Assembly: GCA_011364905.1 (NCBI GenBank)
Contig: RDNZ01000007.1
Span: forward strand, 16,394-80,393
DNA length: 64,000 bases
Direction of reading: 5' to 3'
Source of the DNA: Candidatus Thorarchaeota archaeon
Lineage (GTDB): Archaea > Asgardarchaeota > Thorarchaeia > Thorarchaeales > Thorarchaeaceae
Under the pieces are notes generated by a model. The model had not been told where the DNA came from, made no database searches, and saw only the letters and a program-made list of their open reading frames with translations. Shown here piece after piece: positions 16,334-27,561 of the stretch (positions are counted from its first letter, which is position 1; every line of letters starts with the position of its first letter). The translations under genes and the position numbers were made by a program.

Positions 16334-16989
16334 AAGGCATGTGGACAAAGGAAAAAGCAATGAAATTAATCTATGACACAGCTCTGATTCCAATTATTCG
16401 TGTTGAGTCGGCGGATATTGCTTTCAAAGTGGCGGATGCATTTTTGCAGGGAGGCGTTCCCATCATAGAAGTGACCATGAGCGTTCCAGGCGCTGTCGAG
16501 GTTGTGCAACAACTTGTAGAGAAGTTTGGTAATAAGGTCCTGATAGGTTCAGGGACTGTTGTTAGCGGGAAAATGGCTGAGGAAGTCATCAAAGCTGGAA
16601 GTGAGTTCATTGTGAGCCCTAATTATTCTCGTGATTTGATTGAGACTGCAATGAAACATGACAAGCCAATTATACCAGGAGCCCTCACGCCCACTGAGAT
16701 CTATGATGCATACACAATGGGGGCAGATGCGGTCAAAGTATTCCCGTGTGGTATGGTGGGGGGTGCGGATTATCTGAAAGCCATAAGAGGGCCACTGCCC
16801 CACATCCCGCTCGTCCCAACTGGTGGCGTAGAACTAGAAACTGCAGGGTCCATGCTTGAGGCAGGAGCATATGCGCTTGGTGTTGGTGGAGCAATCACTG
16901 ACAAAAAAGCCATCAAGGAAGGCCGGTATGAAGTAATTACTGAGAATGTTAGTAAATTTCTTGAGATTGTAAAGGACTACAGGAGGTAA
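16330..16989 (+). CDS. eda: KDPG/KHG aldolase
   Basis: IEVT, GSGTV, FIVSP, PGALTPTE, VKVFP, PTGGV. Confidence 0.9.
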   Translation: MKGMWTKEKAMKLIYDTALIPIIRVESADIAFKVADAFLQGGVPIIEVTMSVPGAVEVVQQLVEKFGNKVLIGSGTVVSGKMAEEVIKAGSEFIVSPNYSRDLIETAMKHDKPIIPGALTPTEIYDAYTMGADAVKVFPCGMVGGADYLKAIRGPLPHIPLVPTGGVELETAGSMLEAGAYALGVGGAITDKKAIKEGRYEVITENVSKFLEIVKDYRR

Positions 16990-25582: not shown

Positions 25583-26005
25583 CTATTCCGACACCCGTTC
25601 AACAACGACTCTCTGAACTCCATCAAGAACCTTGAGTGAATTCTCCAAATCTGCCAAGTCTGAACTGAGTTGTCCGGGGTTGAAATAGCACTCATAGAAG
25701 CATCTTGTTCCTCGGAGACACACACCTGTTGAAAATAAAAGATCAACAAGACCTGCTTTCTTGAAAATCTGGGACAGTTTGGTCAAGAAATCATTTGTGA
25801 GTTTTCCTATCTCGAGACTGAGGAACAAAACTTCATCACTCTCGAGCGGGAATATCTTAATGAGCCGGTCCTTGTGCACTAGCACCATTAATCCTTGAGA
25901 GGTCCCCATAGCGCTCTTAAACGCAGATGGAAATTTCACAGTTTCACTATCATCAAAAACTAATACTTTTCCGGCGGTTGCACCTTCATAGGCTTCGTCT
26001 GACAT
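25583..26005 (-). CDS. Hypothetical protein with ACT-like C-terminal domain
   Basis: Alternating beta/alpha pattern ending LDGVQRVVVE; start adjusted to MSDEAY. Confidence 0.5.
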   Translation of the reverse strand: MSDEAYEGATAGKVLVFDDSETVKFPSAFKSAMGTSQGLMVLVHKDRLIKIFPLESDEVLFLSLEIGKLTNDFLTKLSQIFKKAGLVDLLFSTGVCLRGTRCFYECYFNPGQLSSDLADLENSLKVLDGVQRVVVERVSE

Positions 26006-26133
26006 CAGTTTTGGTCTCCGTAACGAAATCCTGCTGATGTATCTCCCCAAACTCGAATATAAGTGAATCTCTACTGTTTGGTCGGATATGTGCTCCTTTT
26101 GTAGGTGTCATTCATACATTACTCTGATATACT

Positions 26134-26403
26134 ATGAAACTGACAGATACTGAAAAAGAGCCATTTCATGGACTGAGAGATGTATCAGACTTAAGAACTC
26201 AATTTCAATGTGAGTACCGATTGCGTCTCAAACAGGCAACTGGAAACACTTCCACACCAGCAAGTGTCGCCGGGACAAGGTTTCATCAACTTCTTGCATC
26301 ACAGACAGATATTCGCAAAACTGAGAATGGAAAAAATCGGTTTGTTCCTTTATTGATAATCATCATCACTCTACTTGTTGGTACCCTTTGGATCATCTGG
26401 TGA
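26134..26403 (+). CDS. N-terminal half of a Cas4-like nuclease with C-terminal TM helix
   Basis: VSDL...CEYR (first Fe-S Cys) and GTRFH helix, then FVPLLIIIITLLVGTLWIIW. Confidence 0.65.
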   Translation: MKLTDTEKEPFHGLRDVSDLRTQFQCEYRLRLKQATGNTSTPASVAGTRFHQLLASQTDIRKTENGKNRFVPLLIIIITLLVGTLWIIW

Positions 26404-26407
26404 TTGT

Positions 26408-27067
26408 ATGAGTAACCTTGTCAGTTTTCTCATGATACTAATGTGCATGCTTGGACTCTTAGTCTTCTTAGCATATCAACCAAAGAGTGGTCTTGTATCG
26501 TCTGGGATGATAATGAGAAGAGCAGTATCTGCACCCGTGTGTCTCTCCGAGTTCTTGACTAAGAAGCAGAAGCAGTGGAAGAACCACACCTATTATTACT
26601 TCGCTGAAGAAACAGTTAGGTCCTTGGGACATAGGTTCATTGGAAGATTCGATGGAGCAGTAATCCATTGGGAAGATGTACCTATCTTGGATCTCATAAT
26701 TGAACACAAATTCCCATCGCAGCATCTCCCAAGACACATGAGACCAGAAGATGTTTTTCAAGCAGGCCTCTATGCACTGGCCTTGATGGAGAGCGGTGTT
26801 TCTTGTTCCTCGACAAAACTTGTGACAATATACTGCTCCCAAGATAAGGCGGAAAAATGTTTAGAAAGAAAATCGACTAGAGATTGCTGGCGTTGCAACG
26901 AGAGTAGATCATATGTGAAGAAATTCAGACCAAACGATGTGCTTAGGATCCTAAAGAGATTGGATGAAGTTTGGTACGAAGGTAGGAAGTCAAGAACCAC
27001 TCATGATGAAAGCAATTGTTGGGTTTGTCCATATAGTAATGGCAGATGCAACTATGCTTTGGTTTGA
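26408..27067 (+). CDS. C-terminal half of a Cas4-like PD-(D/E)xK nuclease with N-terminal TM helix
   Basis: GRFDG, IEHK, QAGLYALAL, CWVCPY....C; ATG at 26408 preceded by GGTGA. Confidence 0.75.
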   Translation: MSNLVSFLMILMCMLGLLVFLAYQPKSGLVSSGMIMRRAVSAPVCLSEFLTKKQKQWKNHTYYYFAEETVRSLGHRFIGRFDGAVIHWEDVPILDLIIEHKFPSQHLPRHMRPEDVFQAGLYALALMESGVSCSSTKLVTIYCSQDKAEKCLERKSTRDCWRCNESRSYVKKFRPNDVLRILKRLDEVWYEGRKSRTTHDESNCWVCPYSNGRCNYALV

Positions 27068-27129
27068 TTTGGAAGTTGATATACAACAACACAGACCTTT
27101 TTACGTTAGAGAATCAACAAGAAGATGCT

Positions 27130-27549
27130 ATGGTTCATTCATTAACAAGACTCCTATCTTATGTAATAGCCGCAAAGAGAGATTTGAAACGTACCTACTA
27201 CACCGCACGAAATCACGATGCCAAATTGGATGCAAAAGAGCTTGTAGCAGCTACGATAGCTCTTCAGCGACTATTGGAGGACCTTCTTGCCAAACGTAGA
27301 ACGAGTAGGTTAGCCAAAAGAATCTTGGAAGACAGAAAAGCGAATCTGTCGGTTCAACGATGGATAAACGGATTTCCAAAGCGGGTGAAAGAGTATCTAT
27401 CGAAGTCGAAAAAGCTCGAACAGCAGCATCTTCGAAAGTATCAACAAGTTCTCCTAGAGTACATAAACGGGATAAGCATGGAGCTTGCTCGATGGATTGA
27501 AGATATCGAAACAATGAAAGAACTGCCAAGACTTCCCCGAGAATCATGA
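27130..27549 (+). CDS. Basic all-helical hypothetical protein
   Basis: 139 aa from ATG 27130, amphipathic helices. Confidence 0.6.
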   Translation: MVHSLTRLLSYVIAAKRDLKRTYYTARNHDAKLDAKELVAATIALQRLLEDLLAKRRTSRLAKRILEDRKANLSVQRWINGFPKRVKEYLSKSKKLEQQHLRKYQQVLLEYINGISMELARWIEDIETMKELPRLPRES

Positions 27550-27561
27550 GGATTTTTTATT

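Follow-up and report, generated by a model that had tools for sequence, protein, structure and literature searches.

How can a nuclease whose conserved motifs are divided between two neighbouring genes, each of which also encodes a hydrophobic helix, form one enzyme, or is such a gene simply broken? The question arises from a contig of a Candidatus Thorarchaeota archaeon (GenBank assembly GCA_011364905.1, contig RDNZ01000007.1), of which we analysed a stretch of 64,000 nucleotides (nt), positions 16,394 to 80,393 of the forward strand (the window; gene coordinates below are those of the window unless a locus handle precedes them). An earlier note, made from the letters of the window, had proposed that two open reading frames (ORFs), ORF1 and ORF2, encode a split, doubly membrane-anchored, Cas4-like nuclease without CRISPR, and had pointed to a third gene downstream, ORF3. 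The ORF1-ORF2 pair and ORF3 all lie on the (+) strand at the positions given there. We conclude that ORF1 and ORF2 very probably have a two-subunit membrane nuclease architecture, which is conserved as two genes across one Asgard family.

Conserved motifs of ORF1 and ORF2

ORF1 (26134..26403, +; 89 amino acids) was assigned from motifs, alignment and hhalign as an N-terminal nuclease piece ending in a C-terminal transmembrane (TM) helix. It contains a VSDL...C motif, in which the cysteine (Cys) is residue 26, followed by G47-x3-H51, and residues 70-88 form a hydrophobic tail, in agreement with the claim that ORF1 carries the Cas4 N-terminal elements and then a TM helix. The named residues are invariant in 21/21 ORF1 sequences. 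Cys26 (26209..26211, +) was also found in 25/25 ORF1 pieces that cover this column. Its invariance, together with its position in an interface range (residues 23-32) of the complex model described below, makes it the predicted fourth ligand of a 4Fe-4S cluster.

ORF2 (26408..27067, +; 219 amino acids) is the catalytic half, in which alignment, AlphaFold2 (AF2), Foldseek and hhalign together delimit a TM helix, a juxtamembrane segment, a PD-(D/E)xK core, an insert with four Cys (the Cys4 insert) and a C-terminal Cys triad. The catalytic motifs (26651..26773, +) are D82 within GRFD (26651-26653), E99-x-K101 (26702-26710) and Q118-x3-Y122 (26759-26773). The triad, C204-x2-C207-x6-C214 (27017..27049, +), aligns with the C-terminal Cys motif of EXO5. 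All named residues of ORF2, including those of the insert, are invariant in 35/35 sequences and then in 27/27 sequences from 13 further genera. Thus, the TM helix, GRFD, ExK, QxxxY and three terminal Cys that had been read from ORF2 are all present and conserved. The additional insert, which had been described as CxxxxxxxxCxxC, is also present; the count of three Cys was too low, and the insert contains four invariant Cys, C143-x7-C151-x8-C160-x2-C163 (26834..26896, +). This element has no counterpart in aligned single-chain Asgard relatives, and its pattern suggests that it binds a second metal, either Zn or an iron-sulphur (Fe-S) cluster. The AF2 model of ORF2 has a predicted local distance difference test (pLDDT) score of 86 and places a helix at residues 2-23.

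The split is conserved in one Asgard family

We examined 48 loci from one Asgard family, 21 from the window's genus and 27 from 13 further genera. Two separate ORFs are present at 48/48 loci, and ORF1 is intact at 45/48. In the window, the TGA stop of ORF1 (26401-26403) is followed after a 4-nt gap by the ATG of ORF2 at 26408, in the +1 frame. This layout is kept in the genus: the order ORF1, ORF2, ORF3 is constant at 21/21 loci, the ORF1 stop is TGA in 20 and TAA in 1, the gap is 4 nt at 20/21, and the frame offset is +1 at 21/21. At the 27 loci of the other genera, ORF2 is always an ORF of its own, and ORF1 is intact upstream at 24. The junction there ranges from about -4 nt (a GTGA overlap) to +26 nt, and the frame offset was scored at the 26 of these loci that have ORF1: 19 have an offset of 2, 5 have an offset of 1, and at the remaining 2 it is 0, with a single stop between the halves. 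Within the genus, protein identity is 37-57% for ORF1, 46-60% for ORF2 and 58-77% for ORF3. The split, the synteny and the TM helices anticipated for other Asgard genomes are therefore all retained.

These data bear on the possibility that the window simply contains a pseudogene or a sequencing indel. Decay does occur in a few lineages: ORF1 has an internal stop at one locus (L043, in a g19 genome), has been truncated at two others (L045 and L048), and survives as a remnant at a fourth (L069). By contrast, both halves are intact at 45/48 loci with 37-60% identity within the genus, and the catalytic and Cys residues are invariant. Moreover, contigs from 4 runs of 4 studies contain no indel at 26395-26410, only substitutions, so the assembly fault that had been considered at this junction was not found. 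Because the split is conserved, it is neither an assembly error nor a recent pseudogene, and we rejected both explanations as extremely improbable.

The truncated loci belong to two g29 genomes (L045:150-600 and L048:1550-2000). In place of the 5' half of ORF1, they have the C-terminal end of another gene, whose zinc-ribbon CxxC...CxxC and conserved NAARNI-type tail we take to be TnpB/OrfB-like. This replacement implies that an IS200/IS605-type element cut the small subunit gene. ORF2 retains all invariant residues at both loci.

We also considered whether ORF1 and ORF2 are expressed as a single protein by programmed frameshifting or stop readthrough, which would place both TM helices as a hairpin in one chain. 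The ORF2 frame is open upstream into ORF1 at many loci, giving open frames of up to 296 amino acids, and at two loci the halves share a frame with a lone TGA between them. However, the offset is 1 at the 21 genus loci and 2, 1 or 0 elsewhere, so no single recoding mechanism fits, and this variation among genera rules out one programmed recoding event. In addition, a start codon is rightly placed for ORF2 at nearly all loci, GGTGA precedes it at 35/47 junctions (counted by eye), and the N-terminal extensions that arise out of frame show no conservation at the protein level. Programmed frameshifting was therefore rejected, and a single protein made by any form of recoding is very unlikely.

Two unusual junctions were observed. 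At L058:1015-1030 (g18) and L059:2015-2045 (g20; both in reverse-complement coordinates), ORF1 and ORF2 share a reading frame that one TGA interrupts, and this layout is the only arrangement seen in which simple readthrough could fuse the halves. At L015/L034 (G001:C1:571993-572652), a TAG lies two codons after the usual ATG of ORF2; here ORF2 probably starts at a TTG just behind the TAG, so that the junction would have been re-made.

Database searches gave the same picture of ORF2 as a separate protein. A word-indexed search with ORF2 returned 132 relatives; among the 120 listed, nearly all are 201-230 amino acids long, and most are labelled Thorarchaeota or Promethearchaeota in the source records. 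Seven longer entries (243-294 amino acids) have N-terminal extensions that lack the ORF1 motifs and are not conserved as protein, which implies that they are upstream read-throughs in the ORF2 frame and not fusions. No ORF1-ORF2 fusion, expected at about 310 amino acids, was found in an exhaustive phmmer search of 1.84 billion representative proteins, which gave 24 matches, 23 of them in proteins of 68-252 amino acids and one weak match in a protein of 4586 amino acids. The last (P0142) has 7 weak stretches that match ORF2 residues 117-157 (E 8.6e-6) and probably reflects a repeated Cys-rich or helical motif, not a nuclease. A search of genome contigs with the ORF2 protein alone gave 84 pattern matches, of which 0 were confirmed.

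ORF1 and ORF2 align with one EXO5-like chain

Neither half is recognised readily by curated families. In a Pfam scan of the window's ORFs, ORF1 and ORF2 had no Exo5 and no Cas_Cas4 match; ORF1 alone gave PDDEXK_1 at E=0.048 and nothing better, and ORF2 alone matched nothing in Pfam or NCBIfam. Among 22 members of the ORF2 family, PDDEXK_1 was matched by 5 (best E 9.4e-6), Exo5 by 2 (best E 0.098) and Cas_Cas4 by 1 (E 0.0088). The best PDB match of an ORF2 profile was human EXO5 (7lw7, E 0.011), over the C-terminal Cys motif. In structure searches with the AF2 model of ORF2, the first Foldseek matches were type I-C Cas4 (8d3l), SSO0001 (4ic1), EXO5 (7lw9) and MGME1 (best E 2.1e-3, probability about 1), and 33 viral PD-(D/E)xK/Cas4 models matched at E ≤ 1e-3. 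In the Atlas, ORF2 adjoins PDDEXK_1 clusters, after its own Thorarchaeota cluster.

The relation between the halves became apparent from relatives outside the family. Four weak matches in other families of the phylum are soluble single-chain proteins with open frames of 279-314 amino acids and no visible hydrophobic stretch, and 3 of the 4 exceed the Pfam gathering cut-off for Exo5 (PF09810, 25 bits; the cut-off for Cas_Cas4, PF01930, is 22.7 bits). In hhalign comparisons, ORF1 residues 16-57 fall on residues 81-122 of such Exo5-like proteins (E 6.9e-5, probability 63%), and ORF2 residues 64-219 fall on residues 134-311 (E 9.6e-15, probability 98%). ORF1 residues 58-89 and ORF2 residues 1-63 thus stand where the single-chain relatives have a link of 11 residues. 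This colinear placement implies that ORF1 and ORF2 were once parts of a single chain.

In sequence, the pair comes closest among named families to EXO5, through the single-chain Asgard relatives, and not to CRISPR Cas4. The term "Cas4-like" was therefore right in that a Cas4/EXO5-type Fe-S nuclease is genuinely split, and the profile comparisons that had been suggested gave both the Exo5-like alignment and PDDEXK_1 matches; the family to which it pointed was not the closest one. Read from sequence and model, the pair has the PD-(D/E)xK fold, the D...ExK and QxxxY motifs, and one N-terminal plus three C-terminal Cys that characterise the clan. These four Cys are divided over two polypeptides, with Cys26 on ORF1 and C204/C207/C214 on ORF2.

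Exo5 itself is unevenly distributed. In a genome scan, 1/85 genomes of the window's family (f1) had an Exo5 match, below the cut-off. In another family of the same phylum (f20), 11/12 genomes (G116-G126) contain a clear single-chain Exo5 with open frames of 312-323 amino acids, and most families have none, which implies that the Exo5 clan is patchy in the phylum.

The two halves model as one complex with a predicted shared cluster

The complex of ORF1 and ORF2 was modelled with a riding 4Fe-4S cluster in three runs and with three controls. The complex score was 0.82 in 3/3 runs, compared to 0.05 for the best of the three controls; this mark was reached by 58/80 solved complexes and by 2/110 mismatched pairs. 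Contacts agreed between runs to at least 69%, and the pLDDT of the partner was at least 64. The confident interface comprises residues 13-32, 36 and 46-54 of ORF1, and 204, 207 and 214 are among its residues in ORF2; it is given as residue ranges and not as Cys-Cys pairs. As these ranges cover Cys26 and the triad, the segment around Cys26 meets the Cys triad in the model. In EXO5, the 4Fe-4S cluster joins N- and C-terminal Cys, and single-stranded DNA (ssDNA) enters nearby (PMC8710748).

The high score relative to the control supports the proposal that the halves would model as one fold. The earlier note had also named findings that would be contrary to its reading, namely continuous homologs, homologs without TM helices, an assembly indel and halves that do not form one fold; none of these was obtained.

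Both halves carry a hydrophobic helix at the cut

TM helices were scored by the best 19-residue Kyte-Doolittle window. The first, at ORF1 residues 70-88 (26341..26397, +), leaves 0-2 residues beyond the helix, and the top window is C-terminal in 21/21 ORF1 sequences (score 2.55-3.23). The second, at ORF2 residues 4-22 (26417..26473, +), coincides with the AF2 helix, and the top window is N-terminal in 35/35 ORF2 sequences (score 1.98-3.32). Both halves therefore carry one hydrophobic helix each, at the cut, which supports the proposal that both are membrane-anchored.

The mean number of Lys plus Arg in ORF2 is 0.03 ahead of the helix, compared with 3.4 over the 15 residues behind it. If the positive-inside rule is applied, and given that loading of Fe-S proteins takes place in the cytoplasm, ORF1 should be oriented N-in/C-out and ORF2 N-out/C-in, with both soluble parts in the cytoplasm. 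The charge pattern thus suggests that the soluble parts are on the same side of the membrane, as an active enzyme assembled from the two would need.

The junction looks translationally coupled

The junction (26399..26410, +) consists of GGTGA (26399-26403), which contains the ORF1 stop, the 4-nt spacer and the ORF2 ATG. Judged from its sequence across loci, it looks translationally coupled, as had been proposed in preference to a frameshift. Upstream of ORF1, a T-rich box, CCTTTTGTAGG (26095..26105, +), begins 39 nt 5' of the start codon, and a CCTTTT/GCTTTT/TCTTTT core was seen by eye in 20/20 aligned sequences of the genus. It is a putative archaeal TATA-type promoter of ORF1-ORF2.

ORF3 is probably a neighbour and not an obligate subunit

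ORF3 (27130..27549, +; 139 amino acids) was identified by alignment, AF2 and genome search as a basic four-helix bundle restricted to the family. Its alignment has a mean column identity of 79%, and its AF2 model is all helical with a pLDDT of 89.6. The best PDB match in Foldseek, to a generic helical bundle, was not significant (E 0.083), Pfam gave only weak chance matches, and the best Atlas score of 0.77 is a lead only.

The earlier note had raised ORF3 as a possible third component, in which case ORF3 would be an obligate partner or regulator of ORF1 and ORF2. Two observations favour such a three-subunit system. ORF3 is directly downstream at 20/21 genus loci (the contig of the 21st ends first) and at 26/27 others, and it has the same family-restricted range, occurring in 75/85 genomes of the family and in 0/314 elsewhere. 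However, ORF3 is kept in 5 genomes in which ORF2 was not found, namely 3/3 genomes of g28 and the 1/1 genome of g16, all four with no trace of ORF1 or ORF2, and one genome (G394) with an ORF1 remnant, and in another genome (G368) it lies about 12 kilobases (kb) away from ORF2. It is also more conserved than ORF1 or ORF2, and neither its fold nor its family gives any hint towards nucleases.

ORF3 appears in addition to have its own promoter. A box, CCTTTTTACG (27096..27105, +), lies about 32 nt 5' of the ORF3 ATG, after a well-conserved ACACAGA-like stretch, and GACCTT followed by a T/A-rich box was seen by eye in 20/20 ORF2-ORF3 spacers of the genus; the box ahead of ORF1 is similar. We regard the ORF3 box as a putative archaeal TATA-type promoter. 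The two promoter-like boxes suggest that ORF1 and ORF2 share one bicistronic message and that ORF3 has a message of its own, almost without a leader, which makes an obligate third subunit unlikely. The persistence of ORF3 without ORF2, its separation by 12 kb and its own box thus weaken the proposed third component. We consider a three-subunit system distinctly improbable and conclude that ORF3 is probably a neighbour.

Just 3' of the ORF3 stop, at position 27552 in non-coding sequence, contigs from two runs contain a variant with a one-base T insertion.

The pair is inherited in a housekeeping neighbourhood

The locus is flanked by genes for a CpXC protein, a DedA/VTT membrane protein, a conserved 155-amino-acid protein without a family, aRF1 and PheRS-alpha, and the same neighbours flank it in other genera. 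The gene for the 155-amino-acid protein (25583-26050, -) is divergent from ORF1, and its product has no Pfam match at E ≤ 1. Homologues occur at four loci that lack ORF1 and ORF2 altogether and at the locus with an ORF1 remnant. The intergenic region that this gene shares with ORF1 has a conserved element containing AATATAAG.

By genome search, ORF2 is present in 20/24 other species of the window's genus. An ORF2 profile matched 70/85 genomes of the family and gave 4 weak partial matches, the single-chain proteins described above, among 314 genomes from the phylum's other families. The gene is single-copy in 69/71 family genomes with a full-strength match (G000 included); in G002 and G371 it is in two pieces on separate contigs. 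The occurrence of the pair at the same housekeeping locus at 48 loci in 14 genera implies vertical inheritance and is not island-like. Thus, we conclude that the two genes form a single-copy, dispensable chromosomal pair that is passed on vertically and resides in a housekeeping neighbourhood, not in a defence island.

This context bears on a role in defence or DNA-entry surveillance, in which a tethered nuclease would destroy foreign DNA, from injected viral genomes or from uptake, as it arrives at the inner face of the membrane, and assembly of the halves might be the control point. The catalytic part is predicted to lie right at the cytoplasmic face, and several lineages have lost the pair or have it disrupted, a pattern common among defence genes. 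Moreover, Cas4-type nucleases are common in viruses and defence systems, consistent with the 33 viral structural matches and with Cas4 as the top PDB fold. Against these points stand the single copy and constant housekeeping locus, and no sensor or partner gene is evident nearby. In addition, ORF1 and ORF2 matched no family in PADLOC-DB at E ≤ 1, where ORF3 gave one chance-level match (E 0.0075, 12.9 bits), and a tblastn search with ORF2 found no match in 50,697 phage records. The window's genome (80.8% complete) contains no Pfam match for Cas1 or Cas4, consistent with the expected absence of a CRISPR link; CRISPR arrays as such were not scanned for. Taken together, these results make a defence role unlikely.

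A probable membrane-anchored, two-subunit Fe-S nuclease

The reading that we favour, and hold to be probable, is that ORF1 and ORF2 form a heterodimeric, membrane-anchored, Fe-S-stapled ssDNA nuclease at the cytoplasmic face. In this model, the two proteins would be subunits of one PD-(D/E)xK Fe-S nuclease of the EXO5/Cas4/AddB clan. An ancestral soluble single chain would have gained about 95 residues at the link between its N-terminal Cys/GxxxH helices and its catalytic core. This insert would form a two-helix membrane hairpin plus a juxtamembrane segment, and the gene would have been cut in the outer loop of the hairpin. ORF1 would then be tail-anchored with its N-terminus inside, and ORF2 signal-anchored with its N-terminus outside and the remainder inside. 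A single bicistronic message would serve for both, and the start of ORF2 translation would be coupled to the termination of ORF1. The two halves would dock such that Cys26 and Cys204/207/214 hold one 4Fe-4S cluster across the subunit interface, and the lineage-specific Cys4 insert would hold a second metal. Once assembled, the enzyme would act on ssDNA ends by cutting or resection, like EXO5 and Cas4, but at the inner membrane face only.

Several points weigh against this reading. ORF1 by itself is weakly recognisable (Pfam E 0.048; hhalign probability 63%), and ORF2 falls below the curated Exo5 and Cas_Cas4 cut-offs. The pass of the complex model may stem from likeness to solved single-chain Cas4 and EXO5 structures, and the custom alignments and the 4Fe-4S ligand depart from the conditions under which the complex score was calibrated. 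The TM helices lie outside the confident interface, which says nothing either way, and the TM calls come from Kyte-Doolittle windows and charge counts, not from a dedicated predictor. The 4-nt spacer behind GGTGA is short for a Shine-Dalgarno site, and the coupling is deduced from sequence. The pair is dispensable, being not found in g28 (0/3 genomes, 96-99% complete) or g16 (0/1). One g29 genome (G394, locus L069) keeps an ORF1 remnant only, and ORF1 is TnpB-truncated in two g29 genomes and has an internal stop in one g19 genome. Finally, we infer Fe-S binding, nuclease activity, substrate, membrane insertion and topology from the features described above; the conserved split, the homology, and the presence of hydrophobic helices and invariant residues are direct observations.

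Any particular cellular role is doubtful at present. The vertical, housekeeping-type inheritance inclines us to a role at the membrane, either in DNA-end processing or in repair. A more speculative and rather unlikely possibility is that the cluster acts as an inter-subunit staple, that the ssDNA channel is shut only when the halves meet, and that assembly in the plane of the membrane gates a nuclease for DNA at the envelope, with the Cys4 insert as a possible redox or metal sensor. If true, such a gated enzyme, policing viral or environmental DNA or membrane-attached replication intermediates, would represent a new way of building and controlling a nuclease. It would also be the first in the Cas4/EXO5 clan to be integral to the membrane.

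Comparison with known nucleases

To our knowledge, and as every relative seen in this analysis shows, Fe-S-stapled nucleases (Cas4, EXO5, AddB, Dna2) are soluble and consist of one chain, with its N- and C-termini tied together by the cluster. No description of a split or membrane-anchored Cas4 or EXO5 was found in the literature outside subscription journals, judged by titles and abstracts.

The closest comparison is with EXO5 (Exonuclease V, PF09810; human EXO5, PDB 7LW7-7LWA), which has the same PD-(D/E)xK core, an N-terminal Cys helix and a C-terminal CxxC...C, and which binds a 4Fe-4S cluster. In contrast, EXO5 is one soluble chain, whereas ORF1 and ORF2 are two genes with a TM helix each, about 95 residues in place of the 11-residue link, and the Cys4 insert. 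Structurally, the ORF2 model is matched best by CRISPR Cas4 (PF01930; SSO0001, 4IC1; type I-C, 8D3L), whose motif order and 1+3 Cys cluster are the same as in the pair. Unlike Cas4, the pair is not single-chain and is predicted not to be soluble, has housekeeping neighbours, and occurs in a genome with no Cas1 or Cas4 match. MGME1, the Dna2 nuclease domain, and the nuclease domains of AddB and AdnAB belong to the same fold class and are among the Foldseek matches, and some nucleases of this class are Fe-S stapled. However, they are soluble domains or parts of helicase-nucleases, and no helicase is fused or adjacent to ORF1 or ORF2. Membrane-held competence nucleases, such as pneumococcal EndA, act where DNA crosses the membrane; they have an unrelated fold, a single chain and an outward-facing active site, unlike the predicted cytoplasm-facing active site of ORF1 and ORF2.

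The range of the pair is narrow, being one family, and its hosts are uncultured. Set against these systems, the distinguishing feature is that the four staple ligands are on two membrane-anchored proteins and are retained across one Asgard family. If confirmed, ORF1 and ORF2 would be a natural split enzyme with a cofactor bridging its subunits, in a nuclease class able to act at the membrane. Asgard archaea are the closest archaeal group to eukaryotes, whose own EXO5 and MGME1 serve in organelles and the nucleus, and the split enzyme, if confirmed, would be a lineage-specific component of Asgard DNA metabolism.

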